Origin: a virus
Length of the DNA stretch: 64,000 bases
IMG/VR virus record: IMGVR_UViG_3300032116_000082
Coordinates: 1-64,000 of that record
Reading direction: 5' to 3' (one strand)
The translations under genes and the position numbers were made by a program. This document shows, one piece after another, positions 1,340 through 59,460 of the stretch (position 1 is the first letter of the stretch; each line of letters begins with the position of its first letter). The notes beneath the pieces are model-generated. The model did no database searches, had not been told where the DNA came from, and saw nothing but the letters and a program-made list of their open reading frames with translations.

Positions 1340-1348
1340 CGACCTATT
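1340..1348 (+). promoter_or_regulatory. CGACCTATT motif copy in the loop of a CGCAT/ATGCG hairpin
   Basis: Exact copy of the recurring intergenic motif, 39 nt upstream of the ATG at 1387. Confidence 0.55.
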
Positions 1349-1386
1349 CATATGCGCAGTGACAACCCTTCGCACCTGGAGCGAGT

Positions 1387-1536
1387 ATGTTTGGATTTGG
1401 TGTATTCCTGGCGTTCCTCGGGGTGATCTACGTGATTCGTGAGATCTTGTTGAGCGCGAACCACGCGCCGCCCTCCACCGGTGGAGGCGGCGGTGGTTCT
1501 GACTCGTCGCCCCCTGATCCACAGCACATGTCGTGA
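1387..1536 (+). CDS. Small membrane protein, 49 aa (below the ORF-track cutoff)
   Basis: MFGFGVFLAFLGVIYVIREILL...PQHMS*; GGAG upstream; fills the gap before a terminator. Confidence 0.65.
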   Translation: MFGFGVFLAFLGVIYVIREILLSANHAPPSTGGGGGGSDSSPPDPQHMS

Positions 1537-1548
1537 TGTAAGGATCAG

Positions 1549-1583
1549 AGCCCCTGCTTCAATACAGAGGCAGGGGCTTTCTT
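1549..1583 (+). terminator. Intrinsic terminator-like hairpin
   Basis: AGCCCCTGCTTC-aataca-GAGGCAGGGGCT followed by TTCTT. Confidence 0.7.
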
Positions 1584-1597
1584 CATCTTCCAGTCGT

Positions 1598-3517
1598 ATG
1601 AACTCGCAGATTCTTGAACCGTTGCCATTCGGCAAACACAAAGGACGGACGCTCAGTCAGTTGATGGCTGGTTCGGTGGGTGAACGGGGCTACGTCGAGT
1701 GGATGGCTCGGGAGTTCAGCAACGAGGTGTGGCGTCGGGCAGCAGAGGACGCCGTCGCCAATGCGGCGCAGGCGATCGTTCCGGAGCGGTTCCATTACAC
1801 CATCGGTGTGGTGACGGACACCCGTGCCAGTCTGGTGTGTGCGTACGACCAACGCATTGTCACGCTGCTCCGTGACCGGGTCGACGGTATCAACTGGAAC
1901 CGCAAGGAACAACGGTGGGAGTTTCCGACCGCGCAGCTCGCGGCAGTCAAAGCACTGCTGAGCAGCGTCGGCACGGTCGAGATGTCGGAGGCCGCCGAGC
2001 AAGCGATGACCTACCATATCGACCGACGCGCCCGACTGGACTCTATTCGGGTCACGCACGATACCGATATGGAGATTCCGACGGTGTTGCCGCTGTTTGG
2101 CTTTCAGCGCGTCGGCGTGGAGTTTGCCCTCGAAGCGGGTGGCCGAGCGCTGATCGCGGATGAGATGGGCCTCGGCAAGACGTCGCAGGCCATTGGAACG
2201 GCGCTCATGCTCCGTGCCAAGCACGGAGCCCGGCGAATCCTGACCGTATGCCCAGCCAGTCTCAAGATCAACTGGTACCGGGAGTGGATCCGATTCGGCG
2301 GATTGGAACCGACGATCTGGCATGGCCAGAAGCGTATTGGAGACCTGGAGGCAGATGTCCACATCATCAATTACGACATCTTCGCCAAGTTCAGGACAGA
2401 GCTCGAGCAGCTCAACTTCGATCTGATCCTAATCGATGAGGCGCACTATCTCAAAAACAAGGACGCCTTACGGAGTATCGCCGTCTTTGGTGGATACAAC
2501 AAACGGGAGCGAGTGCGGGTCAAGCCGTTCGCGACGCGATTTGCGGTACTGTTGACCGGCACGCCGGTGCTCAATCGACCGGGCGAACTGTTTCCGTTGC
2601 TGCATTACTTGGCGCCAGAGCGGTTCGCCGACTGGTTTACGTACGCCAATCGGTATGGCGCCTGGGCTCCGATGAACATGGAGGGGCGACCGTCCAAGCC
2701 CCAAAACCTGGACGAGCTCCACGAACGGACCAAGGACATCGTCATTCGGCGAAAAAAGGTCGACGTGCTGAAGGACCTGCCGCCCAAGCTGGTCAGTGAT
2801 GTGTTTGTCGAATTGTCCACCGAGCAGCGCAAGACGTACCGGAAGACGTTGATCACGGTGGCCGAGGAGTGGAAGGCCGCCGCCAAGGACAAGCAAAAGC
2901 CGACGCTCAACGAACTGCAGATTTTGACCACGTTCCTCAACGAAGTGAAGCTCGATAAAGTACGGGAGCTGGTCGGTGAGCTTCAAAACGAAGACGACGT
3001 ACGGTCGGTGCTCGTGTTTTGTACACGCCTCGGTCCGCTGAAGCAGTTGCGTGAGCAGTATAAGCAGCAGGCCATCTACATCGATGGCAGCATGACCCCA
3101 GAGCAGCGCCAGGCGGAAGTTGACCGCTTTCAGCGCGGTGACGCAACCATCGCCCTGCTCTCTTTGCGAGCAGCAGGCGTGGGTCTGACGCTGACCAAAG
3201 CCGACACCGTGATCTTCATTGACCAGGACTTTGTCCCGGCCAACCACCAGCAGGCGGAAGACCGCGCACACCGCATCGGACAAGTCAATCCGGTGCAGAT
3301 CTACTACCTGTTGGCTGAAGATACTATCGATGAAGACCTACGAGCCTTGCTTGCCGAGAAAGTCGCCATCACCAGCCAGATCGCGGACGGGGAGGTCCGC
3401 CAGCTCGAGCGCCAACGGTCGGTGTTTACGGATTTCGTGCGGCGACTCAAGGCGCGGTACAAGCAGTTCGCCTCTCTCGCCGATCCTGACGACGTCCAGT
3501 ACACGGAGGCTGCATGA
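1598..3517 (+). CDS. SNF2-family (SMARCAL1/HARP-like) helicase with an N-terminal PFGKHKG domain
   Basis: ADEMGLGKT, DEAH, LTGTP, AAGVGLTL, QAEDRAHRIGQ; start placed at ATG 1598, after the hairpin. Confidence 0.9.
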   Translation: MNSQILEPLPFGKHKGRTLSQLMAGSVGERGYVEWMAREFSNEVWRRAAEDAVANAAQAIVPERFHYTIGVVTDTRASLVCAYDQRIVTLLRDRVDGINWNRKEQRWEFPTAQLAAVKALLSSVGTVEMSEAAEQAMTYHIDRRARLDSIRVTHDTDMEIPTVLPLFGFQRVGVEFALEAGGRALIADEMGLGKTSQAIGTALMLRAKHGARRILTVCPASLKINWYREWIRFGGLEPTIWHGQKRIGDLEADVHIINYDIFAKFRTELEQLNFDLILIDEAHYLKNKDALRSIAVFGGYNKRERVRVKPFATRFAVLLTGTPVLNRPGELFPLLHYLAPERFADWFTYANRYGAWAPMNMEGRPSKPQNLDELHERTKDIVIRRKKVDVLKDLPPKLVSDVFVELSTEQRKTYRKTLITVAEEWKAAAKDKQKPTLNELQILTTFLNEVKLDKVRELVGELQNEDDVRSVLVFCTRLGPLKQLREQYKQQAIYIDGSMTPEQRQAEVDRFQRGDATIALLSLRAAGVGLTLTKADTVIFIDQDFVPANHQQAEDRAHRIGQVNPVQIYYLLAEDTIDEDLRALLAEKVAITSQIADGEVRQLERQRSVFTDFVRRLKARYKQFASLADPDDVQYTEAA

Positions 3518-4026
3518 AGGAATTTCTGGTGATTGCTGCGGTTGCCCTGACGACAACGTTCCTTCCGACGCAAGCGCGGACGGAGCCAATCGCCGAGTAT
3601 TTGATGCGACGCGGCGCCACGGAGCGGCGCGCGCACCAAGTCGCCAAACATATCCACGCCGAGGCCGCGCGGCATCGGATTGATCCCGCCCTGGTGGCGG
3701 CGATCGTCACCGTAGAAAACCCCCTGCTTCGACCCACGGCCCGTTCCCGCGCCGGAGCGCTGGGACTGATGCAGGTCATTCCAAAGTACACTAAGCCGTA
3801 TCAGCGGCGGTGTGGTCGTGCGCTGACAGACGATCGCACGAATCTGTGCATCGGGATCCAGATCTATCAGAAGAACCTGGAAGTCCGAAAGACCGTGGTC
3901 GGTGCCCTACTTGGCTACAACGGGTGCCGGTCACGCACGGCCAAATGTGGCCGATACGCCACGATTGTACTGCGCCACCGCGCAGCGGTGGCCCAACTCA
4001 TCACCGATACCGCAGGGACAGGATGA
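3514..4026 (+). CDS. Lytic transglycosylase (SLT domain) with signal peptide
   Basis: IDPALVAAIVTVEN (catalytic Glu), GALGLMQV, ALLGYNG; N-terminal signal sequence; four Cys. Confidence 0.85.
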   Translation: MKEFLVIAAVALTTTFLPTQARTEPIAEYLMRRGATERRAHQVAKHIHAEAARHRIDPALVAAIVTVENPLLRPTARSRAGALGLMQVIPKYTKPYQRRCGRALTDDRTNLCIGIQIYQKNLEVRKTVVGALLGYNGCRSRTAKCGRYATIVLRHRAAVAQLITDTAGTG

Positions 4027-4340: not shown

Positions 4341-4346
4341 GCGATC

Positions 4347-4394: not shown

Positions 4395-4410
4395 ACTTCC
4401 TTATCTGACT

Positions 4411-4810: not shown

Positions 4811-5217
4811 TGGAGCTTCTTGCCCTCCTGGTCGGCACGGCCGCCTCGATCGTGAGCATCGTGCAGGGTTGCACGGCATTGCGCGCCGACCAGAAACGTC
4901 AGCTTGTGCAGTTGTTCGAACAAATCAGCGACACCATCGAATCGGCCGCTGACACGCTGTCGAAGGGAGAGGTGCCGCATGGCAGCTGTGCGACGATGGG
5001 CGCGCTTGCCGGGGCGCTACCAGCAGTCCTTGCGGATCTGGTACCGCCGCACGAGGTGCAGCAGCATACGGAGATTCTGCTCCGTGCCCATGACCTAGAG
5101 CAGCTGGTCATCGTGACGCGGGACAACCCGCAGGCGGTCGTTCTGCTCCAGCAGGCGGCGGGGCACTTCCGTGCGGCGTCCACAATTGCGGGCCTAAAAC
5201 GGATATACACAGCATGA
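4810..5217 (+). CDS. Hypothetical protein with N-terminal hydrophobic helix
   Basis: TAATG overlap; MELLALLVGTAASIVSIV. Confidence 0.7.
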   Translation: MELLALLVGTAASIVSIVQGCTALRADQKRQLVQLFEQISDTIESAADTLSKGEVPHGSCATMGALAGALPAVLADLVPPHEVQQHTEILLRAHDLEQLVIVTRDNPQAVVLLQQAAGHFRAASTIAGLKRIYTA

Positions 5218-10333: not shown

Positions 10334-11169
10334 TGGTGGCGTACCGCGCGGAGGCACGGGTGATCGCAAACCTGCAAAAGGCCATTGTGGCGACGGAGGC
10401 GACACACGAAGTGGCGGTATTGCTGCGTCAACCGCGGGACCTGCTCGGCCTCCGTCACGATGCCGAGCTGGCCACCGTGGTCGTCCTTGATCTCCGTACG
10501 CTCGACATCCATACCGCGGTCACGGTATCAACGGACACGCTCCATACCAATGCGTTCGCCAAAGTCGTTGTCGTTGCGGCGTTGCAGCCTAAGCTGCAGG
10601 AGCAGTGCCGCCTGTACGAACTAGGCCGGGCCGGAGTCGCCTCGTTGCCGTCTCCGGACCAGGCCGAGCAGGCGTGGTGGTGGACGCAGTTCATTGAAAG
10701 TCACATCACGTTTGATATCGTGGCCGCGGCTCACCAAGACTTGGCTGCTCTGATGCCGTCTGGTGAGCGTGGCGAATTCCTGCTGCGTGTCGCCCAGCTG
10801 GCTCACCTGCCTAGTATAAAGAGCCTCTCCGACCGTCTCTACCCTGGAGACAGTTACAGCATGTCGTACAAACGACGCCGGTTGTGGGAGGAGTGCCGCC
10901 GGTTGCACTTGGGCACCCCGGAAGCAGTGCTGGCCGCAACCCGCCTGATGTTGATCAAGTTCATTCTGGATGCGGATCAGTGGACGCTCAACCGGGTGGC
11001 TCGGTACTTTGGTGTCGATACGTCCCGGAATTTCAACCGTAGCTGCAAGACGAGGTATAGTCTGTCGGTCAAAGACATTCGACGAATGCCTCGAGACTCC
11101 ATAGTTGCCAAGGCCACGGAGATGTTCGTGTCGAACGCTCCATGGTCGGTCCTGCTGCAAGAACCATAG
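10327..11169 (+). CDS. AraC-type HTH regulator with degenerate receiver-like N-domain
   Basis: C-terminal TPEAVLAATRL...WTLNRVARYFGVDTSRNFNRSCKTRYSLS; VVVLDL in the N-domain; ATGCTGA overlap with ruvB-like gene. Confidence 0.7.
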   Translation: MLMVAYRAEARVIANLQKAIVATEATHEVAVLLRQPRDLLGLRHDAELATVVVLDLRTLDIHTAVTVSTDTLHTNAFAKVVVVAALQPKLQEQCRLYELGRAGVASLPSPDQAEQAWWWTQFIESHITFDIVAAAHQDLAALMPSGERGEFLLRVAQLAHLPSIKSLSDRLYPGDSYSMSYKRRRLWEECRRLHLGTPEAVLAATRLMLIKFILDADQWTLNRVARYFGVDTSRNFNRSCKTRYSLSVKDIRRMPRDSIVAKATEMFVSNAPWSVLLQEP

Positions 11170-11197
11170 GCGCCGTCGAAAGACGGCGCTTTCGTTT
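11170..11197 (+). terminator. Intrinsic terminator (GAAA tetraloop)
   Basis: GCGCCGTC-GAAA-GACGGCGC-TTTCGTTT directly after the stop. Confidence 0.85.
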
Positions 11198-11330
11198 ATG
11201 GGGATTCCGTGCCCCTTGTTTTGCGCGGCGGGAGCCGGGAGTGTGAGGCTAAAGAAAACCCACCAAAACGGCAGATTAAGACACCATAACGTAAGGATGC
11301 GGCCGATAGTGTTTCGTTAGGAAACGGGTC

Positions 11331-11346
11331 AGTGATTCGTATCACA
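11331..11346. promoter_or_regulatory. CRP/FNR-family-like operator
   Basis: AGTGA-ttcgta-TCACA, 9/10 match to TGTGA-N6-TCACA, in a large (~270 nt) intergenic gap. Confidence 0.4.
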
Positions 11347-11390
11347 AAGCTGTCCTTCCAGGTAACGAACTCGGCCTTTTACAGTACCGA

Positions 11391-11441
11391 CCTCAGCTGG
11401 ATCTTATGCGCAACCACAAACTGCTGAGGGGTTGCGCATGA
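11391..11441 (+). promoter_or_regulatory. Structured leader occluding SD and AUG of the sigma-like gene
   Basis: 11404-15 pairs with 11430-41 (12 bp, includes AUG); 11391-97 pairs with 11423-29 (7 bp, includes GAGG). Confidence 0.55.
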
Positions 11442-12172
11442 ACGGTACAGAACAGTCGCTAGCGGATAGGTGCCGGTCTGTAGGTGAAGTGGTTTGTCAC
11501 CTGGGCGGCTTCGTACGCCGCCAGCTCAACAAGAAGCTCGAAGAGCCGATCTCAGATACCGATTGGCAACAGCATGGTCGAGTCGCGGTCTTCTTGGCCT
11601 TTCTGAACCTAGACGGCAATCCGGATCGACCAGACGGATTCGATTGGTATGCCAAGTCCTTCGTGGCCAAGGCCCTTTCCATTCTGCAGCAAATCACCAT
11701 TGGCAGCGAAAGCGACGTCTACGATCGAATCGTTCGGTGTCGCCAACGGCGATCGGCCAGGAACGTAGATGAGCTGCGCTGGGATTGTTGGGCCTCCGCC
11801 TCGCTCGATGACATTGCGGGCCATCGCGCGGTTGAGGATTTCAGTCTTGACCTAATGGCCCCTACATCGTTGGAGCAGATGTATGAGTTTGAACGGGCGG
11901 CGGCACGTCCGCAGGTCGATGACGCACTGGTCCAGGAGCTCACAAAGAACCTCAAGCCGCAAGAGGCGGTGTGGTTGATCCGTCGCTATCGCGACGGCGT
12001 GCCGACGGCGATTCTGGCGGAAGAACTCTGCCGCAAGAACGTCAAGTATCAGACACCGGATGGACAGGTCCGCGCTATCCGGTGCATTGATGTCGCGGTT
12101 CATCGTGCGCGAGCCAAGGCGCGCAAGTTTCTCAACAGCCGTTGGCAACAGTTGGCCGCAGAAGTGTCGTGA
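11438..12172 (+). CDS. Sigma-70-like (ECF/group 3-4 size) phage sigma factor
   Basis: Region-4-like LKPQEAVWLIRRYRDGVPTAILAEEL...VAVHRARAKARKFL; region-2-like GRVAVFLAFLNLD...FDWYAKSFV; ASLDD linker. Confidence 0.65.
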   Translation: MNGTEQSLADRCRSVGEVVCHLGGFVRRQLNKKLEEPISDTDWQQHGRVAVFLAFLNLDGNPDRPDGFDWYAKSFVAKALSILQQITIGSESDVYDRIVRCRQRRSARNVDELRWDCWASASLDDIAGHRAVEDFSLDLMAPTSLEQMYEFERAAARPQVDDALVQELTKNLKPQEAVWLIRRYRDGVPTAILAEELCRKNVKYQTPDGQVRAIRCIDVAVHRARAKARKFLNSRWQQLAAEVS

Positions 12173-12390
12173 ATATCCAGTTGAGACTCAAGGCACTTGC
12201 CTCAGCCCCCATGCCAAACCTCGTAGAAGTTGTAGAACTCGATCCGGCGTACAAATTCAGCCCCCTGGTAGATATCATCGACGCGGCGATTGCCAAACGG
12301 CGGTTACTCAAACTTCGCACTCTTGAGGGCGACGCCCTCGTCATTCGTACGGACGTCCTTCATAGCCTCGCCATCCGAGAAACCCACTAA
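12169..12390 (+). CDS. Hypothetical protein
   Basis: GTGA and TAATG overlaps at both ends. Confidence 0.6.
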   Translation: MNIQLRLKALASAPMPNLVEVVELDPAYKFSPLVDIIDAAIAKRRLLKLRTLEGDALVIRTDVLHSLAIRETH

Positions 12391-13391
12391 TGCCCATCAT
12401 CGGTTACGTATGCCCACCTGGCGGAGAAGCCCCTGGTCGGCAGAACCACGTCGAGTATTGCCTGAAGGACTGTCAACAGCAGTGTGTGACCCCGCCGCTT
12501 CTTGCGGCCATGTGGAAGGCAGACACCGGCAACTATCACCAAGGCGACTACATTTCCGCGTCCATGCTGGCCGGGTCGGGCTGCGGTCGCCAGGTGATGT
12601 TGGAGCGGTATCAGGACTTCTACGACCTGCCGACCAAGCGGTATTGGCCGTTCCGCGGTACGCACGCCCACGCGATTATCGAAGGCGCGGGGGATATCAT
12701 TGCCAAGTATGGATGGCTGCAGGAAATCCGTATGGCGACGAAGCTCGAGTACGAGCTCCCGCAGCCGGTCTTCGATGAGCACGGGAACTGGACGGGCGAC
12801 TACGATTCGTCCAAAAACCTGGAAATCGTCGTGCGTGGGACCACCGATGCGTACAATCCGTACTCGCGGACCTTGACGGACATGAAGAGCATGGCCGACA
12901 AGAAGGTCGAGATGATGATCAAGGGGTCAACGCCGGGGACGTACTCAAAGCATTTGCAGGATTCGTGGGTCGCCCAGCTGAACATCTACCGCTACTTGAT
13001 CTCGAAGACGGAGATTCCGGATTGGGTTCACACCGCCTTCAAGGAGCATGGGCTTCCGAAGCTCAAGGGAAAGCTGTTCCCTGCCCCGACTAAGCTCTTT
13101 ATCCAGGGCATCGCCATGATGAGCCATCCGGTATCCGGCTCAAAGTTGGCACACAAGGAACGCGGCAAGGTCACGCTGTACGACATCGACCACGTGCCGG
13201 TGTGGTCGATCGAAGAAACCGAAGACTTTATTCGTCCGCGTGCCCTGGAGTGGTATCGGGCGCTCAACCTCAAGATCACCCCGCCGGTTGTGTCGAAAGA
13301 CAAAGAATGGCTGTGTCGGAATTGTGCCTTCCACGAAAAGGTGTGTTTTCCGGCACAAGAACGCGACTCGCAGGAGCAGTCGAGTGACTGA
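12390..13391 (+). CDS. Cas4/AddB-like PD-(D/E)XK nuclease with Fe-S cysteines
   Basis: CGRQ, GTHAHA, GTTD, DMK, QLNIY, C-terminal CRNCAFHEKVC. Confidence 0.8.
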   Translation: MPIIGYVCPPGGEAPGRQNHVEYCLKDCQQQCVTPPLLAAMWKADTGNYHQGDYISASMLAGSGCGRQVMLERYQDFYDLPTKRYWPFRGTHAHAIIEGAGDIIAKYGWLQEIRMATKLEYELPQPVFDEHGNWTGDYDSSKNLEIVVRGTTDAYNPYSRTLTDMKSMADKKVEMMIKGSTPGTYSKHLQDSWVAQLNIYRYLISKTEIPDWVHTAFKEHGLPKLKGKLFPAPTKLFIQGIAMMSHPVSGSKLAHKERGKVTLYDIDHVPVWSIEETEDFIRPRALEWYRALNLKITPPVVSKDKEWLCRNCAFHEKVCFPAQERDSQEQSSD

Positions 13392-13668
13392 GTCCTTGCT
13401 GCCAGAAAACCTGCCGTGGTATGGGTACTGCCCAGTGCAGATTGAAGGAGAAATAGACGGTTACCACTATTACTTTCGTGCCCGTGGAACGCGGTGGACG
13501 TTTCAGATCGCAGACGTCCCTCACAAAGACCCCATCGACGCCCCAAACTTCATGGAAGGACGCATCGATGCGGAGTTTGCGGCCGGGTGGATGCCCCATC
13601 CGCTCGCTAGAGCGCTTGTCGACTGGGCCCTTGCCGTCTATCAAGCGGAACGTAGTCGCTCCCAGTAA
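13384..13668 (+). CDS. Conserved phage hypothetical protein
   Basis: CPVQIEGEIDGYHYYFRARG; overlaps the upstream stop. Confidence 0.65.
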   Translation: MTESLLPENLPWYGYCPVQIEGEIDGYHYYFRARGTRWTFQIADVPHKDPIDAPNFMEGRIDAEFAAGWMPHPLARALVDWALAVYQAERSRSQ

Positions 13669-13728
13669 GAATTCCCCTGGGTCAGTCAACCAGTACGCAG
13701 CACTTCTTATCATCTCAACGAGGAACGC

Positions 13729-14604: not shown

Positions 14605-14641
14605 GCCAGTCGTACAACCCACCCCCAATCCGCAAACCAGG

Positions 14642-14670
14642 CCCGTTGGCGACCTACTTGTCCCAACGGG
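14642..14670 (+). promoter_or_regulatory. Hairpin with CGACCTACT motif variant, overlapping the nrdJ SD
   Basis: CCCGTTGG-c-GAC-ctactt-GTC-CCAACGGG; the 3' arm includes the GGG of GGGAGG. Confidence 0.5.
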
Positions 14671-14679: not shown

Positions 14680-16653
14680 ATGAAGAATAAGGAAGTCGTG
14701 TTTACGCTAAACGACGCGTTTGTCGCGTCCTACGGTGAAAAGACCCCGCCATTTGGCTTTAACGGCCTTGGTGAACTGGTGTATCTGCGCACCTACAGCC
14801 GGATCAAGGAGGACGGCACCCAGGAGCAGTGGCACGAGACCGTTCGTCGGGTGGTTGAAGGTTGCTATACCATGCAGAAACGATGGATTACAGACCACAA
14901 CCTGGGCTGGTCCGACCGCAAGGCGCAGCGGAGCGCCCAGGAGATGTACGACCGGATCTGGAACATGAAGTTCCTGCCGCCGGGTCGTGGGCTGTGGGCC
15001 ATGGGGTCGTCCCTGACGATGGAAAAGGACCTCTATGCCGCCCTCAACAACTGCGCCTTCGTTAGCACCGAAAACCTGGAAAAGGACCTGTCAGAGCCGT
15101 TCACGTTCCTGATGGATGCCTCCATGCTCGGCATCGGCGTGGGCTTTGACACCAAGGGTGCGGGCAAGCTGACGATCACGGCCCCGCAAGCTGACGAGAA
15201 GACCATGGTGATCCCGGATACCCGCGAGGGTTGGGTGGATTCCATCAAGCTCCTCCTGGAATCCTACTTCCTGCCGGACTCGGCGACCGTGGTGTTCGAC
15301 TACAGCCAGATCCGCCCAGCTGGGCAGCCGATCAAGGGCTTTGGTGGCGTCTCGTCTGGTCCGGACCCGCTCGAGCAGCTGCACAAGGATATCCGTGCAG
15401 TGCTCGATCAAAGCGCGGGGAAGCCGATCTCGGTGACCAACATCGTCGACATCATGAACCTGATCGGCAAGTGCGTCGTGGCCGGGAATGTTCGTCGCAC
15501 CGCAGAGATCGCCTTCGGCGCACCCGATAGTCAGGAGTTCCTGGACCTCAAGAACTACGAGGTCAATCCGCATCGGGCCTCGTACGGGTGGACCAGCAAC
15601 AACTCGATCTATGCTGAGATCGGCATGGACTACACGGAAGCGGCCAAGCGTATCAAGTACAACGGAGAGCCGGGATTTGCCTGGCTGTCGAACATGCGGG
15701 AGTACAGTCGCATGGATGAGCTGCCTGATAACAAGGACTATCGGGTGGCCGGTGCCAACCCGTGCGTGGAGCAGTCCCTGGAGTCGTACGAGCTGTGCTG
15801 CCTAGTCGAGACGTTCCCGGCCAACCACGAAACCCTCGAAGACTACGGGCGTACGCTGAAGTTCGCCTACCTGTATGCCAAGACGGTCACGCTGGGCAAG
15901 ACGCCGTGGGCCAAGACCAATCGCGTGCTGCTTCGGAACCGGCGCATTGGGCTGTCGCAGTCGGGCATTCAGCAGGCGATCGCCAAGCTCGGCATCCAGC
16001 ACTACCGCGTGTGGTGCGACATGGGCTACGAAACGGTGCGCTACTACGACGACGTCTACTCGGAGTGGCTAGCTATCCCGAAGTCGGTCAAGACCACGTC
16101 CGTCAAGCCGTCCGGATCAGTATCGTTGCTCGCCGGAGCCACACCAGGAATGCACTGGCCGGAATCTAAGACGTATATCCGTCGGATGCGCCTGAGCAAG
16201 TACTCGGATCTGATCGCTCCGCTCCAGGCGGCAGGCTATAAGCTCGAGCCTGCGGTTGGTAGTGAAGATTCGACGATGGTCGTCGAGATCCCGGTCAAGA
16301 TTGAGGAGGATATTCGTACGGCGGCTGAGGTCTCGATGTGGGAACAGCTGGCGATGGCGGCGTTCCTGCAGCGGTATTGGAGCGACAACCAGGTGTCGGC
16401 GACGATCACGTTCAATCCGGAAACGGAAGGTGATCAGATCGCCAATGCGCTGAACTACTATCAGTACCAGCTCAAAGGCATCAGCTTCCTGCCGCGCGTC
16501 GACTATGGGGCGTATCCACAGATGCCGTACGAAGCCATCGATGAGGCGACGTACCAAGCACGCAAGGCCGAGCTCAAGCCGCTGCACTTTGGTGCTACGC
16601 ACGAGGCGGCCGAACAGGAGAAATTCTGTAGTAACGACAGCTGTACCATCTGA
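14680..16653 (+). CDS. nrdJ: Class II (adenosylcobalamin) monomeric ribonucleoside-triphosphate reductase
   Basis: YLRTYSR, PPGRGLW, LNNCAF, GNVRRTAEI, NPCVEQSLESYELCCL, VKPSGSVS, C-terminal FCSNDSC. Confidence 0.95.
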   Translation: MKNKEVVFTLNDAFVASYGEKTPPFGFNGLGELVYLRTYSRIKEDGTQEQWHETVRRVVEGCYTMQKRWITDHNLGWSDRKAQRSAQEMYDRIWNMKFLPPGRGLWAMGSSLTMEKDLYAALNNCAFVSTENLEKDLSEPFTFLMDASMLGIGVGFDTKGAGKLTITAPQADEKTMVIPDTREGWVDSIKLLLESYFLPDSATVVFDYSQIRPAGQPIKGFGGVSSGPDPLEQLHKDIRAVLDQSAGKPISVTNIVDIMNLIGKCVVAGNVRRTAEIAFGAPDSQEFLDLKNYEVNPHRASYGWTSNNSIYAEIGMDYTEAAKRIKYNGEPGFAWLSNMREYSRMDELPDNKDYRVAGANPCVEQSLESYELCCLVETFPANHETLEDYGRTLKFAYLYAKTVTLGKTPWAKTNRVLLRNRRIGLSQSGIQQAIAKLGIQHYRVWCDMGYETVRYYDDVYSEWLAIPKSVKTTSVKPSGSVSLLAGATPGMHWPESKTYIRRMRLSKYSDLIAPLQAAGYKLEPAVGSEDSTMVVEIPVKIEEDIRTAAEVSMWEQLAMAAFLQRYWSDNQVSATITFNPETEGDQIANALNYYQYQLKGISFLPRVDYGAYPQMPYEAIDEATYQARKAELKPLHFGATHEAAEQEKFCSNDSCTI

Positions 16654-22098: not shown

Positions 22099-22107
22099 AA
22101 TAGGTCG
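22099..22107 (-). promoter_or_regulatory. CGACCTATT motif copy heading the lysis cassette
   Basis: In the loop of an AGGTGATTC/GAATCGCCT stem, just downstream of a terminator. Confidence 0.6.
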
Positions 22108-22128
22108 GCGGAATCACCTTGAAATAGC

Positions 22129-22157
22129 AAAAGCCGCCCCTGTGACGGGACGGCTTT
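22129..22157 (-). terminator. Intrinsic terminator
   Basis: - strand AAAGCCGTCCC...GGGGCGGCTTTT. Confidence 0.75.
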
Positions 22158-34698: not shown

Positions 34699-37600
34699 TC
34701 AGCTCCCTCGCCGCTCAGGCAGCAACACCAGATGACACGTCAACTCCGTAGTTTGTGGAAGGACGGGACCAACCCCCACGGGCATGTGCCCAGTCGTGAA
34801 GGGCCCACCGACGTCCCACGAGATCCCCGAATAGTTTCCGTTCCGCAAAAACCCGCCGGTAATTTTCGGCGTGCTGACATTGAGGTCGTCATCCTTCCAA
34901 CCCGTCCACGCGCCGTAGTCGTAATACAGGTTATTCGAAAAGCCAATGAAGCGGTGTCTCCACCACATCACCCCGTCCAGGCGCTCTTTGCCAAACCGAT
35001 TCGTCGGGAACATGGAGCCCGATTCCCACACGTACTCACTGCGGAACGACGTCCGGAACCAGTCGATACCGGCGCCGGTTGGCGGAGACGTTGTGGTCGA
35101 CGGACCCGTACGATCCACCAGCACCTGAAACAGCGGATAGCTCGAGACATTCAGCGTTTGGCTGACCTGAATGCCCTTATAGCGATGGGGATTCACGTAA
35201 TACGGTGACCCTGCCGCGACCTTGGTCGGCGCCGCCGCCGGGTACGGACCACGACTGTAGATGCCCCGCAGATCTTCCCAATGCACCGTCTCGTCCTGCC
35301 GGACGTAGTTGATGGCATTGGTCGGAACGCCGTCCTTGAACATGCCTTTAGTTACATCGACACGAAATCCAGGGTTGAACTTCAGCGCGGTGCCGGATCC
35401 CGTCATATCAACCGTCGGACTCGACCACGTCTGCGCCGCCCCGGCGTCAGACGTCTTGCGCTCGATAGTGTTATCCGATCCGAAGGCACGGACCTTTACC
35501 TTGGTCTCCGAGCCGCCGATGGTCCAGTACATGTTGATACCGCGAAGATCGGCCTCCTCGCCGTTATTCGTGAAGCTGGCGAACGTCGACTGCGCAAACG
35601 GCGGAGCGGGCGGCGAGACCATTGGGGGCAGTAAGAAATATGGATGCAGATCCCGTGTGATGGACGGAATCCACAACGGACTGCTTTCCCACTCCCACGT
35701 TCCTACGTCCATGCCGCCAGACGCGTTCGCGCCCAGAAACGAACTCGACACGGCGCCTGCGACGGAACCAAGCTGACGCATAACATTCGACGCGCTGTAC
35801 TCGAGCGGCAGGCGGTATCCGTCAACGGATGCCGCCGCGTGATTGGCCGAGTAGGTGTCCTGTGGGAACGTGCCGAAGGCGGACCACGAGACTGGCGTAG
35901 TGCCCACGTTTGTCGCCGACACGTCATGCTGATACCAGAACGACTGCAGTAGCTTGGCAAACAGCGTATTGGCCGAATAACCGAACGCTGTGAGCTGGTT
36001 TGCCTTCCAGTCGGCCTCCTCGGTCCACTGACGGCAAACGACCGTGCGGCGCTGCTCGTACATCGGATCGGTCGGCCAGTTCAGCGCCTGGGTATTGGTG
36101 TAGATCTTAGACTTGTCAACGAAACTGCGATTAATCCCCCAGCTGGAGCGCCCCGAGCGATCGGTGACGTACGCCGACAGGTAAAACAGGTAGGACATCA
36201 AGGCGAACTGCAGGCGGGAACGAGCGGTCGCGGTCGCGCGCGCGCCGTTCCACTGAGGCACTTCTTCCAGCTGCAGGTAGTCCCCGAACTCGATCGACTG
36301 TTCGTACCCGGAGATCAAGAAATCCTTCTTAAAATCCCGCGGATAGAACACCCATTCGGTGCTTGCGTCACCAGGATCCGTCGCGTCGTCCCAGCGGAAC
36401 GTCGAGGCTTTCCGGTAGCCGGAATCCGTATACTGCTTGGTGTGCTCGTCATTGGTCAGGCGACGGCTATACACCGCTCGATCTTCCACCGTCGTCCCTG
36501 GAAACTCCTTGCCCGCATACACCACCACCTGATCCCCGATAATAGCCCGAAGATGGACCTCTCTCGTGAGTTTGACGGAGATCTGGGAATCCTTACCTGC
36601 CCACAGAACACCTGGGCGCGGTGCCACTTTGAACCGAATACGGATCGGCTTGTCGTTGTTAATGTACGCCGTCAACGAGGACGGCTGGCTGGTAGGCGGT
36701 AGCGCGCCCCACGAGGCTCCGATCTTGTCTTCGACTTTCAGCTCGAGCTTCGTGGGTTCTGGTAAATGCGTCAAAATCGCAACGTTGACGTCGTCGTCCT
36801 TACTGCTCAGTTCCCTTTCGGCAGGCGTCGTCGTCTCGGCTTCAATGTGGACATACCAACGGGCGTACGTTCCGTGGCCAATAATCGGGACACCGTCCAC
36901 ATTTCGCGCCAACCAGATGTACGCCAACGGACCGAGGTCGCCGCCGCCAACTTCTTGGTTCCAGACATAGAACCCCCGCCCAACGCGCGGCTTCTGATCG
37001 TCCTCGAACGTACCCTCAACCAACTCGGAATACAGCTCGGACTGGACCGCATTCCACAGGCCCAGCTGGTCCACGCCGTCCCAGGTGAACACCTTGTCGG
37101 CCATCACGGGCAGGTATTCCCAATGCTGCTCCGGCTGATTCGCGTCCGAGGCCGGGTTGGTTAGCCAGCCCACGACCGTGTGATCCTCCCAGTTCCGGAT
37201 CGATACCCGATACATCCCCTCCGCTAGGACGGAGAATCGGATATTGACCAGGTTGCCGAGCTCGCTCGTATACGGGTCATAGAACGGGCTCTTGGAAACA
37301 CCACCAGCAATCCCATTCGGGTCGCCGCCTCCAACAGGGAACAAGGACCGATACCGCACATCAAAGGTCAACACTTCGTCGGTCGATACGCCGGTTGTGG
37401 TCCCTTGAGCCCACGGGAGGGAGACGCCAACACTGGTGTAGTTCAGCCCATAAAACTCGTGGTACGGGTTATTCGAAAGCCACCCGGTGTTCATGCGGTC
37501 CGTACCCACCCGGTACGACAAGAAGATCTTGCCTTCCGTGGCCAAAGCCGCACCGCCAGTCAAGGCTTTCTGACCGCGGAACAGCGAAATGACCCCGTCG

Positions 37601-40665: not shown

Positions 40666-41372
40666 TAGTAGGGGATCTCCTCGTCGATCACAAACGTGAA
40701 CTTGGTATTGCTATACCGGACGGATCCACCATCCCCGCGCAATTCGCGCGTGGTATCCAACACGCGTGCCTTCCACCAGGCGGGTTCCGACCATGACAGC
40801 AGGATCGTGCCGGTCCCGAGCGGGCCGCTGAGGGGATTCTCGAGCGTAAGGCTGGTGCTGGTGGCCCCAATTACCGAGCGTCGCTCAAAGGGGTAAACCG
40901 TGCTTCCAGGAAGCACATCGATGACCGCATTCTTGAGCAGGGACGGACCGACGTTTGCAGGGAGCGACACAGACAATGTGGTAGTGCTCGTCGCCGACGC
41001 CGTGAGCTGCACCTGGCGATTCAGGTTCAGCAATCCGGTGACCCCGTCATAGACATAGATTTGCGGAGGAAGACCACGCGCCATGCGCGTGCGGGCCGTG
41101 AGCTGTTGAAGCCACTTGTAAGTGCGCTCGTAGGTCACCACCTCCGGCCCAGCATTGGACCAGATCCAGCTGCGGCGTCGTGGGTCGCGGTTAGTAACCT
41201 GAGTAATCACACGCCCATCGGCGGTCTCAATCACTTCGCCGAGCTCGGCGTTCGGGTACTCCACCCGCGTCGGTCCGGGAAGGAGCGGAACGTCCTGATT
41301 CAGCTTCGCCCCAGCAAGGTCGGCCATCGCGATGCGGAACCCAACCAGTTTGGTCGTCGTCGTAACGGGCAT
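40665..41372 (-). CDS. Putative distal tail protein
   Basis: Directly after the TMP; GGGGA SD before MPVTT; TAATG coupling to the hub gene. Confidence 0.6.
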   Translation of the reverse strand: MPVTTTTKLVGFRIAMADLAGAKLNQDVPLLPGPTRVEYPNAELGEVIETADGRVITQVTNRDPRRRSWIWSNAGPEVVTYERTYKWLQQLTARTRMARGLPPQIYVYDGVTGLLNLNRQVQLTASATSTTTLSVSLPANVGPSLLKNAVIDVLPGSTVYPFERRSVIGATSTSLTLENPLSGPLGTGTILLSWSEPAWWKARVLDTTRELRGDGGSVRYSNTKFTFVIDEEIPY

Positions 41373-41390
41373 TGCTTCCCCCATAAACAC

Positions 41391-41432
41391 AAAAAGGCGC
41401 ACCGTACCTGAATGGGCACGGGACGCCGTTTT
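41391..41432 (-). terminator. Terminator-like hairpin
   Basis: - strand GGCG-tc-CCGTGCC-cattca-GGTACGG-tg-CGCC-TTTTT. Confidence 0.55.
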
Positions 41433-41457
41433 GCACTCCGAAACTCCCCAAACGACA

Positions 41458-41492
41458 CTCCCCGTGACTCTAATAAGTCGAGTCACGGGGAG
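41458..41492 (-). promoter_or_regulatory. Perfect 13-bp inverted repeat with CGACTTATT at the apex
   Basis: CTCCCCGTGACTC-gacttatta-GAGTCACGGGGAG. Confidence 0.65.
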
Positions 41493-41503
41493 CTGAGCGT
41501 AGG

Positions 41504-49497: not shown

Positions 49498-50613
49498 CTA
49501 CCGAACGGTCAGCAAATCATCCAGCGCTTTCGTCAACTCCCGGTCCAAATCCAACAGGTCTTCCGCATGAAACTGCCCGTTGTTATTGAACAAGAAGTTC
49601 ATCGGTTGCGTACCACGTAACAGCAGTCCGACATTCTCATTGTTACGAGGCCCATAGTGCCAGGTGGGTTCCTTGTTTGCACCAGGATTTCCCGCCGTTT
49701 TCCGCCGCGCACCCGTGCCAAATTCCAAGTGCCGCCAAAAGCTTTTATAACGGGAACTAGTCGGCATACCCGTCAACATATAAGTCGCAGATGGAGTCGT
49801 CAGATCATCGACGACATTCATGGGGCCAAGGCCCACTCCCGCCAGGTTTCCGACTCTCCAATCCTGCACAAAATTGGCGTCGGTGATAATGCTCAGAAGC
49901 GCGATCATCTGACGGCGAAACACATTACCGGTCTTGAGGCTGAACGTATGCGATCGATACGTCTTCCCCTCAGGGCTCTTCTTGAGCTGCTTTATCATGC
50001 GCTCGTTGAGCTTCGTCAGCCGATCCCGAAGCTCCGCCGCACGATCCAAATCACCAGACACCTGTGCGTCGTTTAGACGATCCATGGTGCGGGCAATGGT
50101 GCCTTGTAACCCCACATCCTCCATACGCTTCTTGATCTGCTGGCTTGCAGGGCGCTCGACCCCCTGTTCTTTCAGCACCTGCATCTCGAGCGCCTTAGTC
50201 ATATTCGCCAAATACCGCGCACGAACATTCTTTGCCACCGAGCGAAGGACTGCGACTTTCAGAATCCGCCGCACCACCTCATCGCCCTTTAACAAGTGCT
50301 GAAGGCCAGCAGCCGCACCATCAAAACCGGACGACGAAAAGGAGAACCGCACCTTAATCGTGAAGGAACCTGGAGGACTGGCAACCCGGAACGGTGTCTT
50401 TTGAGTGGCCTGAACCGCGATCTGTTGCTGCCGCTGTTCCGACGCCTGCGCGCCGCGACGCTTGGAGCGCTCAACCCGCTGACGACGATACTCCTGATAC
50501 CACTGCTCACGGTTGTACTGCGGGCGAGGAAACTCCGGCGGCATCGGCTGCGACCGGAGCATCCCCTTGTCCATATTCCACTCGTCTAAGTCATCCGGCG
50601 GTGCCATACTCAC
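49498..50613 (-). CDS. Putative tail-completion protein (HK97 gp10-like motif)
   Basis: WRHLEFGT...QPMNFL motif; lies between chaperone and TMP. Confidence 0.5.
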   Translation of the reverse strand: MSMAPPDDLDEWNMDKGMLRSQPMPPEFPRPQYNREQWYQEYRRQRVERSKRRGAQASEQRQQQIAVQATQKTPFRVASPPGSFTIKVRFSFSSSGFDGAAAGLQHLLKGDEVVRRILKVAVLRSVAKNVRARYLANMTKALEMQVLKEQGVERPASQQIKKRMEDVGLQGTIARTMDRLNDAQVSGDLDRAAELRDRLTKLNERMIKQLKKSPEGKTYRSHTFSLKTGNVFRRQMIALLSIITDANFVQDWRVGNLAGVGLGPMNVVDDLTTPSATYMLTGMPTSSRYKSFWRHLEFGTGARRKTAGNPGANKEPTWHYGPRNNENVGLLLRGTQPMNFLFNNNGQFHAEDLLDLDRELTKALDDLLTVR

Positions 50614-51910: not shown

Positions 51911-51968
51911 AAAGCCCCCGAATAGTCGGTTCGTGTACCCCGCGCCTCTACGTGCGCTATCCATCGAG

Positions 51969-51977
51969 AATAAGTCG
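51969..51977 (-). promoter_or_regulatory. CGACTTATT motif copy
   Basis: ~15 nt downstream of the tail-tube terminator, inside an AGAAT/ATTCT repeat; a second variant CGACTATT lies at 51921-28. Confidence 0.6.
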
Positions 51978-51991
51978 ATTCTTTGGCAACC

Positions 51992-52029
51992 AAAACGAAA
52001 CCGCCGCCCTCAGGGGGCGGCGGCTCGTT
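51992..52029 (-). terminator. Intrinsic terminator after the major tail gene
   Basis: - strand AACGAGCCGCCGCCC...GGGCGGCGGTTTCGTTTT. Confidence 0.85.
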
Positions 52030-53417: not shown

Positions 53418-54050
53418 TTACGCCTCGTAACGGAGGCGCGCGTTCAACGTGAATTCAAAAGCTCTGCTTTCCGGCCCCAGCGGGTAAATCAAGGTGCCAA
53501 CTGATGTCCGCTGTAACTCCATCAATCCTACTGATGCCTTCGTACCGGCATCATGATCCGCCACCGTGAGAAACTGACTCTCGTCAAACGCCACGCGGAG
53601 CGCATCTACGAGGTACAGCTGTTCACCTTGGTCCCGCGCCAGGCCGTACATATCCAGAGACGCAAACCGCTCACGCTCCCTCGATCCGAGGCCCAACAGA
53701 CCGCCGTTCCCCTCATGCTGGACCTGCAAGACAATACTAGGCACCGGCATGTCCTCTGGGGAAAGGACAGCACCATCGCTAGTAGGTCGAGTGGGAAACT
53801 GCGGAAACGAAAAGTCATCGTTCCGTATCGTCAGGATCCCGCGACTATCGTTATACCGGGAAGCCACTGCCGAATCCGACAGAAGAATGGCCGCCTGATT
53901 CGCCTGGTATTGAGGATAGACCCCGTCCGGCGTCTGGAGGGCATCCAGGGTCGGCCAGTACAGCAAATAGTCGTGGCTCAACAGCGTACTCGCCAACACC
54001 TCGGCGACGCTGTTGGTCAGATTAGTCAGGCTGTACGCTGCGAGCGCCAT
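53418..54050 (-). CDS. Putative tail terminator/completion protein
   Basis: Position before the tube gene; PSIVL...LGLG...LDMYG pattern. Confidence 0.6.
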   Translation of the reverse strand: MALAAYSLTNLTNSVAEVLASTLLSHDYLLYWPTLDALQTPDGVYPQYQANQAAILLSDSAVASRYNDSRGILTIRNDDFSFPQFPTRPTSDGAVLSPEDMPVPSIVLQVQHEGNGGLLGLGSRERERFASLDMYGLARDQGEQLYLVDALRVAFDESQFLTVADHDAGTKASVGLMELQRTSVGTLIYPLGPESRAFEFTLNARLRYEA

Positions 54051-55924: not shown

Positions 55925-56041
55925 GCGCCTAGAGGCGCTGTGGTAATTCCCAGGATCCAACCACAGATCCCGTCAATAAGTCGGTGTCAGCAGGCAAAAG
56001 CGGGAACGGCTAACACCGCTCCACACAAGGGGATTGACGGG
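55925..56041 (-). promoter_or_regulatory. Multi-stem structured leader containing CGACTTATT (55975-83)
   Basis: Stems 56033-41/55969-77, 56009-18/55982-91 (G-U), 55960-66/55938-44, 55933-38/55925-30. Confidence 0.5.
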
Positions 56042-56062
56042 CCTGATCACAACCTTACGCCA

Positions 56063-56100: not shown

Positions 56101-56118
56101 GCCTGCGGAGTGCCGCTA

Positions 56119-57084: not shown

Positions 57085-57121
57085 GATCAATCCTCCTTAT
57101 TCGGTGATCAGGTCCGATGAG

Positions 57122-57619
57122 TTAAACCAGCTCGATGCGGACCTTGCCGCCGAGCACGTCGAACACGCGCCCAACCACCGGAGAGGTGATCGCGCCAGAG
57201 ACGTTGGCCTTGCAAAACTTGCCGCCCTTGATCGCCAGCGCCTCGCCGACTACCGGAAGCGCGCCAGAAGCGGCCGGGTTCAGCGAAGTGTGAAGGAGGG
57301 ACGGGTCATACTCGATGATGGCGCCCTTCGCCACCTGGACAATCGCGTCGCCGCTCTTGATGGCAACCACGCGCGAACCCCACTCGGTCGGGACGCCGAA
57401 GAGGCTCTCCGAGACCTGGAGCTGGTCCACCGAGACCTTGGCGGCCACACCCCACTTGCCATCGACCAGCTCGGCCGAGTCAGAATCCCCGACCGTCAGG
57501 GCCTTACGCTCACCAGCGGCGTTCGCGCTGATCTTGATCACCGCGCCGAGGGCAATGTCCTCGCCCGCGACGGCGGTATGACGCGGCGCGTCATAGAAAT
57601 TTGCAATGTGCAGCTTCAT
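57122..57619 (-). CDS. Capsid decoration/cement protein
   Basis: AGGAGG SD; AGEDIALGAVI beta-tulip-like start; between scaffold and MCP. Confidence 0.65.
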   Translation of the reverse strand: MKLHIANFYDAPRHTAVAGEDIALGAVIKISANAAGERKALTVGDSDSAELVDGKWGVAAKVSVDQLQVSESLFGVPTEWGSRVVAIKSGDAIVQVAKGAIIEYDPSLLHTSLNPAASGALPVVGEALAIKGGKFCKANVSGAITSPVVGRVFDVLGGKVRIELV

Positions 57620-57653
57620 GTTTTCCTCCTACAAGGGTTGCCGCTATCGCGGG

Positions 57654-59411
57654 TTACTTGATGAGCGCGGAAACCTTCGCGCTCAGCTCCGTGACACTGC
57701 CCGCAGGCAGAGCGCCCTCTTCCTCAGAGAGCTTCAGGTAGCTGATCTTGGTATCAGCAAACCCAACAAACAGATCGCTCTTGAACTCCATCCAGCTCTC
57801 ATCCGAGGCCGTCGACCAGCGGGCCACGAAACGAGCCTGCTCCTCATCATTCCGCTTGGCAAACGCCGCGCGGTACGACTCGGGCAGCTCCGCGAAACGG
57901 GCAGACCAGCGCTGCTCGATCGCCAGCTTCTCCTGCTCGGCCGCGATCTGCGCCAGGGAGGCATTCGCCGTCTCCAGCTCAGTCACCATCGCCGCCATCT
58001 GCTCCGCCGCCGTCGCCAGTTCGGCCTGCAGGGCATCCCGCTTGAGCTCGGCCTCTTCGGCACGAGCGGTGAGAGCCGCAACCGAAGCGTCGAGCTCAGC
58101 CAGCTTCGCCTGATGCTCAACCTTCGCCTGGGCCGCGAGGTCCAGCTCCGTCTTCAGCACAGCGTTCGCCTCGAGAGCCGCTTCGAGCGCCGCCTGAGAC
58201 ATGTCGTTCTGATTCTCCATTGTCTCCTCCTCCGTGCGCGTCGCCCGACGGGCCCTCACGCGCTCCTTGGCTTCGTTTAACACTGACCGCATGTGGTCGA
58301 GGCCACGAGAGCCGACAGCCAGCCACTTCACCTGCGCTACCACCCCCGCCAACTGAAAATCCTCGTAGTGGCGGGCCACCCACGCCTCACGCAGGCGGAC
58401 TGCATACTCCTCAGTCGCAGTGGTCGTCTTGCCCCCACGGCGAGCCACCGGAGCTAACCGGCGGAACTGGTCGTTTCCGCGGATATTGCCGCCTCGACGC
58501 CAGATTTCCGGCCAGTTTTCCTTCAGGTCGGTCGCCTCATCCAACGGAAACAACTTCCACTGGCTATTTCTGAGGCTGACCGCCTTATCTTCACCGGGCG
58601 TTGGGAAATTCGTCTTGCCCTTCTTGGCGCCAGACAGCACCTCGGTAGCAGATGCCTGCTCCAGGTCGCTGTCAGACCACTGCTCTTCATCAAGGGAAGC
58701 CGCATCCCACTCCCACCATTCACGGGGCCGCTTCTGCTCGGGCATCTGATCCATGTTCTCGATCAGGCCCTTCGCGTCCGGATCACCAGGCGGAACGTTC
58801 AACGCTGACAGCGTAAAGAAGACCGGCTCAATCGCGATCTCGTACGCTCCGTTCTGATCCCGGCCCCGCTCAACGTTGGTCGGGATACAGGCCATCGAGA
58901 ACTCGATGTAGCCCTTCTCCCGCTGGATCCGAAGCATTTCCTCTGCGTACTCGGGAAACGCCCAGGCCCAGACCACCCCTTTTGCCTCGATACCAAGGGC
59001 GCCTCTGCCCTCATAGGCAGCGTCGTCCTGCTTGGCCTCGGCGGCGTACCACACCCCGATAGCCTTCGACACCCCGTCCTGCGGAACCACGGCACTGTGA
59101 TTCCAGTCCATCGGCAGGAAGTTCGGCGCTGCAAGCTTCTCTGCGGCGGGCGCCAAGTCTTCGACGCGGAATACGAGGTTGTTGTTGTTCTTGCCTTCGT
59201 GAACCATCCAAGCCGTCACTAGCAGCTTTGTTGGCTCACCGTCGGTGACCATCGGCATGAACATCGAGGTCTTCATCGCCTGCGCGACACGAGCCTCTTC
59301 GGTGTCCCCAGGAGTGAGCTCCTGCACCGTCGCCCGCGCCGTGATGAATCGGACCCGTTCGAGACCAGCCGACAGGCCGTTCGAACTTTCCTGTCGGTTG
59401 TTCTCGTCCAT
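57654..59411 (-). CDS. Prohead protease fused to an inserted domain and coiled-coil scaffold
   Basis: GKNNNNLVF, DWNHS (His), IGVW, FSMAC (Ser); C-terminal Ala/Glu coiled coil; GGAGGAGG SD before MDENN. Confidence 0.75.
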   Translation of the reverse strand: MDENNRQESSNGLSAGLERVRFITARATVQELTPGDTEEARVAQAMKTSMFMPMVTDGEPTKLLVTAWMVHEGKNNNNLVFRVEDLAPAAEKLAAPNFLPMDWNHSAVVPQDGVSKAIGVWYAAEAKQDDAAYEGRGALGIEAKGVVWAWAFPEYAEEMLRIQREKGYIEFSMACIPTNVERGRDQNGAYEIAIEPVFFTLSALNVPPGDPDAKGLIENMDQMPEQKRPREWWEWDAASLDEEQWSDSDLEQASATEVLSGAKKGKTNFPTPGEDKAVSLRNSQWKLFPLDEATDLKENWPEIWRRGGNIRGNDQFRRLAPVARRGGKTTTATEEYAVRLREAWVARHYEDFQLAGVVAQVKWLAVGSRGLDHMRSVLNEAKERVRARRATRTEEETMENQNDMSQAALEAALEANAVLKTELDLAAQAKVEHQAKLAELDASVAALTARAEEAELKRDALQAELATAAEQMAAMVTELETANASLAQIAAEQEKLAIEQRWSARFAELPESYRAAFAKRNDEEQARFVARWSTASDESWMEFKSDLFVGFADTKISYLKLSEEEGALPAGSVTELSAKVSALIK

Positions 59412-59451
59412 CCAGCCTCCTCCGCTGTCGCCGACCACAAAGGCCATCACG

Positions 59452-59460
59452 AATGAGTCG
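59452..59460 (-). promoter_or_regulatory. CGACTCATT motif variant heading the capsid operon
   Basis: Inside ATCACGA-ctcat-TCGTGAT; ~40 nt upstream of the protease ATG. Confidence 0.55.

Follow-up and report, generated by a model that had tools for sequence, protein, structure and literature searches.

What reads CGACYTATT, a nine-nucleotide word that recurs between the genes of an uncultured virus, and does it act as DNA or as RNA? The word was noticed in bases 1-64000 (hereafter the window) of the 94,271-bp IMG/VR virus record IMGVR_UViG_3300032116_000082, a contig (G000) that is classed as linear, is ~58% complete according to CheckV and has a GC content of 59.5%. The original prediction, made from the letters of the window, took the copies to be promoters for a phage sigma factor, set in hairpins that silence read-through transcripts. 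We compared G000 with three related contigs, namely G001 (84.5 kb, capsid protein 88% identical), G002 (93.5 kb, capsid 75% identical) and L026 (a 21-kb piece of a contig, capsid 63% identical), for a capsid protein that has 84 relatives in public data. CGACYTATT is a real regulatory motif, conserved at orthologous gaps between genes while the flanking DNA diverges. With all sigma options taken together, it is probably a promoter element for a phage sigma factor; with somewhat less assurance, we favour a bipartite promoter of which CGACYTATT would be the -10-type element and which would be read by a split sigma factor encoded just beyond the window.

Recurrence and placement of CGACYTATT

All five exact copies of the original prediction were found again, at 1340(+), 22099(-), 41472(-), 51969(-) and 55975(-). 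Dinucleotide shuffles of the window contain a mean of 0.52 copies and gave five or more in none of 100 trials, in line with the earlier estimate of less than one chance hit. A sixth exact copy lies at 83441(-), in the contig beyond the window, and the reversed pattern, used as a control, does not occur in G000. The placement of the copies, described as intergenic and sense to the next gene, also held, as all six exact copies in G000 are in the sense orientation and none is antisense, each lying in a gap or within 14 nucleotides (nt) of the start of an over-called open reading frame (ORF). Furthermore, a de novo screen of sense-upstream DNA (7.2% of both strands) returned GACTTAT, CGACTTA and CGACCTA as the most enriched 7-mers.

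In the related contig G001, all of the seven exact copies lie on the gene strand, one of them deep within a gene; five occupy gaps orthologous to those with copies in G000, where the surrounding DNA is ~70-75% identical. Taken together, variants with one mismatch show no enrichment (16 against 15.4 expected), hence individual variants need other support. For two of the three variants in the original prediction this came from orthologous conservation and not from counts: CGACTCATT (59452) is kept before the gene for a 598-amino-acid (aa) protein in G000 and G001, with CGACTCACT in L026, and CGACCTACT (14650) is kept before the gene for a class II ribonucleotide reductase (RNR, identified by a Pfam match) in G000, G001 and G002. 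The third, CGACTATT at 51921, is missing at the orthologous places in the relatives and was rejected. Ahead of a gene for sigma region 2, described below, the word reads CGACCTAGT, CGACCTAAT or CGACTTACT in four genomes. The sites in the window, most of which we call class 2, are as follows.

1318-1348, plus strand: class-2 site with a GACG box at 1318-1321, an 18-nt spacer and CGACCTATT at 1340-1348
14628-14670, plus strand: class-2 site before the class II RNR gene, with an ATCCG box starting at 14628, the variant CGACCTACT at 14650-14658 and the RNR ATG at 14680
22099-22157, minus strand: terminator (22157-22130) and class-2 site; the T-tail TGCTATTT at 22129-22122 doubles as the box, with CGACCTATT at 22107-22099
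41372-41502, minus strand: region after the tape-measure gene, with a CTACG box starting at 41502, the motif at 41480-41472 and the ATG of the next gene at 41372
49779-49787, minus strand: CGACTTATA within a tail-chaperone-like ORF, of uncertain status and lacking the upstream CG box
51969-52026, minus strand: terminator (52026-51998) and class-2 site, with the box TTCGTTTT at 51999-51992 and CGACTTATT at 51977-51969
53781-53811, minus strand: bipartite site TTCG-N18-CGACCTACT within the gene for a 210-aa protein
55975-56005, minus strand: class-2 site TCCCG-N17-CGACTTATT, 61 nt before the ATG of the post-capsid gene (244 aa)
59452-59482, minus strand: class-2 site TGCGTTTT-N14-CGACTCATT, 40 nt before the likely ATG of the 598-aa gene

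The sites are placed after terminators and before operons. Downstream of the site at 1318-1348 come a small ORF and the SNF2 helicase gene (1481-3517), and the site at 51969 lies ~58 nt upstream of the likely ATG of a 381-aa gene. Orthologs of the latter were found at 37369 in G001, with the exact motif, and at 69158 in G002 (CGACTTAAT), each again after a terminator. The 55975 site, with an ortholog at 33195 in G001, stands in tandem with a terminator (56097-56072) and with a motif of another class at 56058-56033 (see below). Of three copies originally described as lying just downstream of intrinsic terminators, those at 22099 and 51969 do so directly, whereas at 55975 the terminator is ~90 nt upstream and is separated from the copy by the other promoter-like motif. 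Two places within genes are less clear. The site at 53781-53811 recurs at the same place in G001 (35384) and in G002 (70950, CGACCTAAT); it might promote transcription from within the gene, or its conservation might simply reflect coding constraint. The place in G001 (39425) that is orthologous to 49779 has the exact motif.

The upstream box and the hairpins around the motif

We scanned every offset and dinucleotide upstream of ten G000 sites. The best of the 672 tests was CG at -20/-19, which is present at nine of the ten sites (p 3.2e-6) and which confirms and strengthens the earlier remark that a CG lies 19-20 nt upstream. The full box reads TKCGyttt and is separated from the CGAC motif by 17-18 nt. 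Orthologous sites keep this distance, including those whose 14-nt spacers bear no resemblance to each other. Thus TGCTATTT keeps its spacing at 22099 and at 66400 in G001, where TGCTATTT-N14-CGACTTATT is retained with a different spacer; TGCGTTTT does so at 59452, at 29708 in G001 (with the same variant motif) and at 8046 in L026 (with CGACTCACT); and the ATyCGyAAA box ahead of the RNR gene is a further example. In addition, the 3' half of the motif is A/T-rich and a purine is found 4 nt after it at nine of the ten sites. A pair of short boxes set 17-18 nt apart by a spacer of free sequence is the hallmark of sigma70-family promoters, and the promoter reading is supported by this fixed spacing, the strict sense orientation, the positions after terminators and before operons, the A/T-rich 3' half and the purine.

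Several more familiar readings of the same DNA were tried and rejected. The T-runs upstream of the motif do not serve as a variable -35 element, as their spacing varies while the CG 2-3 bases before them is fixed. A sigma70-type reading as TTCGTT and CTTATT would leave a 19-nt spacer and a poor -10 box, and scans for sigma70-consensus promoters gave chance-level results only. The likeness to sigma-28 -10 elements that had been put forward did not hold, since no site has GCCGATAA or the upstream TAAA box of the TAAA-N15-GCCGATAA consensus. Likenesses to the MotA box, to boxA/nut and to T7-like promoters were dropped for wrong spacing, wrong position relative to the terminators and lack of a polymerase.

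The hairpins are a less general property. The best stems enclosing the motif at the ten G000 sites measure 4, 4, 5, 5, 5, 7, 7, 8, 9 and 14 bp, with loops of 5-16 nt, compared to a background mean of 4.7 bp at 5000 random places, where a stem of at least 8 bp has a probability of 0.044. The set as a whole is enriched (p 3.5e-4), yet five of the ten sites are no better than background, so that the earlier description of nearly all copies as sitting at the apex of an inverted repeat was overstated. Comparison with the relatives, the covariation check that had been suggested, bore out only the hairpins at 41472 and 14650, which are conserved in three genomes. The 9-bp stem at 22099, with one G-U pair, exists in G000 only (4 bp at the G001 ortholog), and the stem at 59452 is likewise not kept in G001.

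The RNR hairpin of G000 has an 8-bp stem (arms 14642-14649 and 14663-14670) with CGACCTACT in its loop. Hairpin and loop are conserved in G001 (79911, minus strand) and G002 (31652, plus strand). The stem is CCCGTTGG/CCAACGGG in G000 and G001, whereas in G002 the same loop is enclosed by GTGGTGGGG/TCCCACTAC, a 9-bp stem of unrelated sequence that includes two G-U pairs. Over the three genomes compared, the stem is thus conserved by compensatory change that includes G-U pairs, which point to RNA. In G000 and G001 the 3' arm CCAACGGG runs into the Shine-Dalgarno (SD) sequence GGGAGG; pairing of the SD is only partial in G002 and is not seen at the other nine sites. The proposed silencing of read-through transcripts therefore fits only the RNR site, with its covarying stem and its overlap between 3' arm and SD, and does not extend to the sites in general.

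After the tape-measure gene, a hairpin with a 13-14-bp stem (41493-41457, minus strand) holds the motif in its loop and is followed, ahead of the next ATG (41372), by a second hairpin (41427-41391) that resembles a terminator and has a U-run. Both are kept in G001 (47155) and in G002 (58137, with the variant CGACCTACT and one G-U pair in the stem of the motif hairpin), and the second hairpin, which covaries in both relatives, might mark out either a short RNA (~65-80 nt) or an attenuated leader.

Candidate sigma factors and rival readings

Sigma-like genes that could supply a cognate factor are present in this motif-bearing genome. The candidates are the following.

66463-66855 of G000, minus strand: region-2 ORF, 130 aa, matching Pfam Sigma70_r2 with 34.6 bits against a cut-off of 24
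66958-67218 of G000, minus strand: region-4 ORF, 86 aa, with an AlphaFold2 model of predicted local distance difference test (pLDDT) score 94, whose Foldseek matches are almost all sigma region 4
11432-12172, plus strand: 245-aa ORF, the sigma of the original prediction, sigma-like by language model and fold

The first two form a split sigma factor (66463-67218, minus strand) that lies 2.5 kb beyond the window, with the region-4 gene first, the region-2 gene second and a gap of ~100 nt between them. The region-2 protein bears an acidic tail and belongs to a family of ~50 region-2-only proteins, in which the DNA-reading helix is invariant across 18 members. Its profile also matches region 2 of FliA (E 0.007), which reflects general sigma-2 similarity. 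The region-4 gene is the last of the replication operon, and the gap that follows it holds the class-2 site TTCG-N18-CGACCTAGT. This arrangement is conserved in G001, G002 and L026, and in all four genomes a class-2 promoter-like site precedes the region-2 gene. Across the motif-sharing genomes the split sigma is 66-76% conserved, versus 34-45% for the 11432-12172 protein.

The latter gave no Pfam or PHROG match, even at E 10. In the ESM Atlas it falls beside viral Sigma70_r2/r4 clusters with scores of 0.95-0.96, and its AlphaFold2 model (41 relatives, pLDDT 85) matches almost only sigma factors in Foldseek, weakly (E 0.1-1); a Sigma70_r4_2 match was found in only one of 41 family members. Its identity is 45% to the G001 ortholog and 34% to that of G002, whereas neighbouring genes reach 72-89%, marking it as an unusually fast-evolving regulator. 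Based on these predictions it is probably a highly divergent two-domain sigma factor. Hence the phage sigma that had been placed at 11438-12172 probably is one, as judged by ESM Atlas and Foldseek, and it is a possible reader of the motif.

A second bipartite promoter-like motif, distinct from class 2 and here called class 1, was found at four places in G000.

56033-56058, minus strand: GTAAGG-N14-GTCAAT
61301-61326, minus strand: class-1 copy
13665-13690, plus strand: class-1 variant copy
74942-74967 of G000, outside the window, minus strand: class-1 copy

The pattern GTAAGR-N14-GTCAAT(T) occurs twice in the window against 0.04 expected, and ten times in gaps of G001. In G002 the GTAAGGT part is kept but the downstream box is CGAAYR. 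Class-1 motifs stand ahead of the primase-helicase/polymerase operon and, in the tandem arrangement already mentioned, with a class-2 site after the capsid gene. They resemble GTAAtg-N16-aCTA, the mapped promoter of gp47 of phage 7-11 (PMC8948821).

If CGACYTATT is a promoter, the 245-aa protein or a host sigma of the extracytoplasmic function (ECF) type might read it instead, leaving the other motif class to the split sigma. The features and fold of the 245-aa protein are those of a sigma, and its place in an early/middle module would allow it to activate the region-2 gene as well as the late genes; furthermore, CGAC-type, CG-containing -10 boxes are typical of ECF sigmas. The motif is unchanged between genomes in which the 245-aa protein has drifted to 45% and 34% identity, far below its neighbours, and this, together with the lack of a Pfam sigma match in the protein and the single Sigma70_r4_2 match among its relatives, speaks against it. 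As for the host, ECF promoters usually carry an AAC-type -35 box, whereas here the upstream box is TKCG and the -10 box extends into a 5-nt A/T-rich tail. The two-part layout and the spacing of ~16-18 nt are shared with ECF (group 4) promoters. So would be autoregulation, which is frequent among ECF sigmas (PMC7826278). A capsid profile search of species genomes found no prophage relative, and thus gave no clue to a host. We regard a reading by either of these sigmas as unlikely.

Slightly less likely still is that the motif acts in RNA, as a loop-presented operator for a phage RNA-binding protein (a translational repressor, antiterminator or stabiliser), the same loop being offered by hairpins whose stems vary. 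Two hairpins that present the motif in this way are conserved in three genomes. Their stems are changed or contain G-U pairs, features sensible only in RNA, and one hairpin abuts an SD while the other precedes a terminator as an attenuator would. Loop presentation is nonetheless not universal, with conserved hairpins at only two of about ten sites, half of the sites without a stem above background and the 22099 and 59452 stems lost in G001. The conserved box 17-18 nt upstream lies outside the hairpins and would have no role; no candidate RNA-binding protein was identified and no Rfam match was obtained; and a promoter within a hairpin, as in T4, also explains the hairpins. The suggestion of N4-like single-stranded DNA hairpin promoters, served by a virion RNA polymerase, is very improbable. 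Some copies do lie in hairpin loops and the phage has giant ORFs, but these ORFs are tape-measure and tail proteins and an S74 fibre. No virion RNA polymerase was found in the genome in hand: G000 and G001 gave no match to PF00940, in searches whose controls also failed to match and with a genome ~58% complete. The loops are 5-16 nt and not 3 nt long, half of the sites have no hairpin, and G-U pairs would be G-T mismatches in DNA.

From these comparisons we infer a promoter role, a reading sigma, a start point and, at one site, a gating of translation. In the favoured reading by the split sigma, host core RNA polymerase with the phage-encoded sigma would recognise the bipartite promoter TKCG(yttt)-N17/18-CGACYTAYT ahead of late and some other operons. 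The 86-aa region-4 protein would bind the upstream box and the 130-aa region-2 protein would bind and melt CGACYTATT, with transcription expected to start a few nt past the motif, where a purine is usual. Since the region-2 gene carries a class-2 promoter-like site, the switch would feed back on itself. At the RNR site, read-through transcripts would fold so that the hairpin covers the SD, whereas transcripts initiated at the motif, having no 5' arm, would be translated. The -10 box of this site would fall in the loop and its start in the 3' arm, which by analogy suggests the design known from T4 genes e, soc, 49 and I-TevI.

A number of observations fit this reading poorly. At two sites the upstream box shares nucleotides with the T-tail of a terminator, and the terminator-like hairpin ~45-80 nt downstream of the 41472 motif, before the next gene, is odd for a simple promoter. 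Class-2 sites also stand ahead of two genes outside the classic late set, those for the SNF2 helicase and RNR, and class 1, GTAAGR-N14-GTCAAT, competes for the same sigmas. The split sigma is preferred over the 11432-12172 protein and a host ECF sigma solely by relative conservation and operon logic, in a genome of which only ~58% is in hand.

We also consider, more tentatively, a two-tier cascade. The 11432-12172 sigma would read class 1 (replication genes and the region-4 gene) and the split sigma class 2 (late genes and its own region-2 gene), giving an AND gate with positive feedback, while conserved RNA hairpins around some promoters would gate translation in the manner of T4 at RNR and, downstream of the tape-measure gene, give rise to a small RNA or to an attenuated leader.

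Related systems, genome context and implications

Promoters of this kind are known from phiEco32, 7-11, T4, SPO1 and Tn916 Sig7-8; what is new here is the consensus, the clade and the proposed pairing with a permuted split sigma. In phiEco32, gp36 reads the 9-bp element tAATGTAtA and transcription starts 6-8 bp downstream, and in phage 7-11 gp47 reads a bipartite element (PMC8948821). As proposed here, a divergent phage sigma70-family protein redirects the host core polymerase in these phages, through a short phage-specific consensus in intergenic DNA before late operons and the sigma gene; promoters for phage sigmas do occur upstream of the sigma gene itself (PMC4331800). In contrast, TKCG-N17/18-CGACYTATT belongs to an unrelated uncultured clade of ~60% GC, is known from sequence alone and is accompanied by two sigma systems, one of them split.

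Split sigmas are known from SPO1 gp33/34, T4 gp55/gp33, SigO-RsoA of B. subtilis and Tn916 Sig7-8 (bioRxiv 10.64898/2026.10.01.756105; PMC7826278). In SigO-RsoA, Tn916 Sig7-8 and SPO1 gp33/gp34, as proposed here, regions 2 and 4 reside on separate polypeptides that jointly recognise the -10 and -35 elements, and the mobile element activates itself via its own promoter. The present case differs in that region 4 is encoded first and region 2 ~100 nt later, apparently in different transcription units, and in that the target promoter is assigned by inference.

The T4 late promoters (TATAAATA; gp55 with gp33) likewise divide the sigma function between two small proteins, and some sit in hairpins that occlude the ribosome-binding site (genes e, soc, 49 and I-TevI; PMC3014915). 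The promoter there lies within the DNA for an SD-covering hairpin and only promoter-proximal transcripts are translated, an anatomy that the RNR site appears to have. T4 late promoters, however, have no -35 box and need the sliding clamp, whereas here the upstream box is conserved, the second protein has a true region-4 fold and the SD-overlapping hairpin is found at one site only.

Plus-strand genes fill the first 19 kb, and among their products are the SNF2 helicase, an SLT lysozyme, a tyrosine recombinase, a RuvB-like ATPase, the class II RNR and an FkbM methyltransferase. The remainder is minus-strand, with genes that include those for a 2659-aa tape-measure protein, giant tail proteins, capsid, portal and terminase, as well as DNA polymerase A, an AEP-DnaB primase-helicase and a 2929-aa fibre with an S74 chaperone domain. 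The primase-helicase (72878-74911 of G000, minus strand) consists of an AEP domain, matching the Pfam TOTE-conflict-system AEP model, fused to a DnaB-like C-terminal domain. Neither tRNA genes nor Rfam families turned up in scans of the window, and megablast of 20 kb of sequence gave no match to GenBank phages.

Two further sequence features were noted. G001 contains, at 10400-12700, ~15 tandem coding repeats of ~70-135 bp each, every one with TTGACGA; they probably encode a fibre protein with repeat domains, overlooked in the crude ORF calling. The repeats imitate an intergenic motif, and TTGACGA was rejected as a promoter motif. A GGGAACAC(T)-like word lies 25-45 nt before the start of the post-capsid gene, at ~55930-55950 (minus strand) in the window and in the loci L022, L025, L027 and L031, and recurs in relatives down to a capsid identity of 51%.

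Collectively, these data provide a testable transcription map, with two promoter classes and two sigma systems, for an uncultured clade of phages of ~60% GC from environmental (partly soil) metagenomes, which has no cultured host. The RNR site suggests that a T4-style late promoter within a hairpin masking the ribosome-binding site arose independently, far from T4. If a split, order-permuted sigma does read the motif, then it would constitute a clean natural AND gate and a compact orthogonal sigma/promoter pair.

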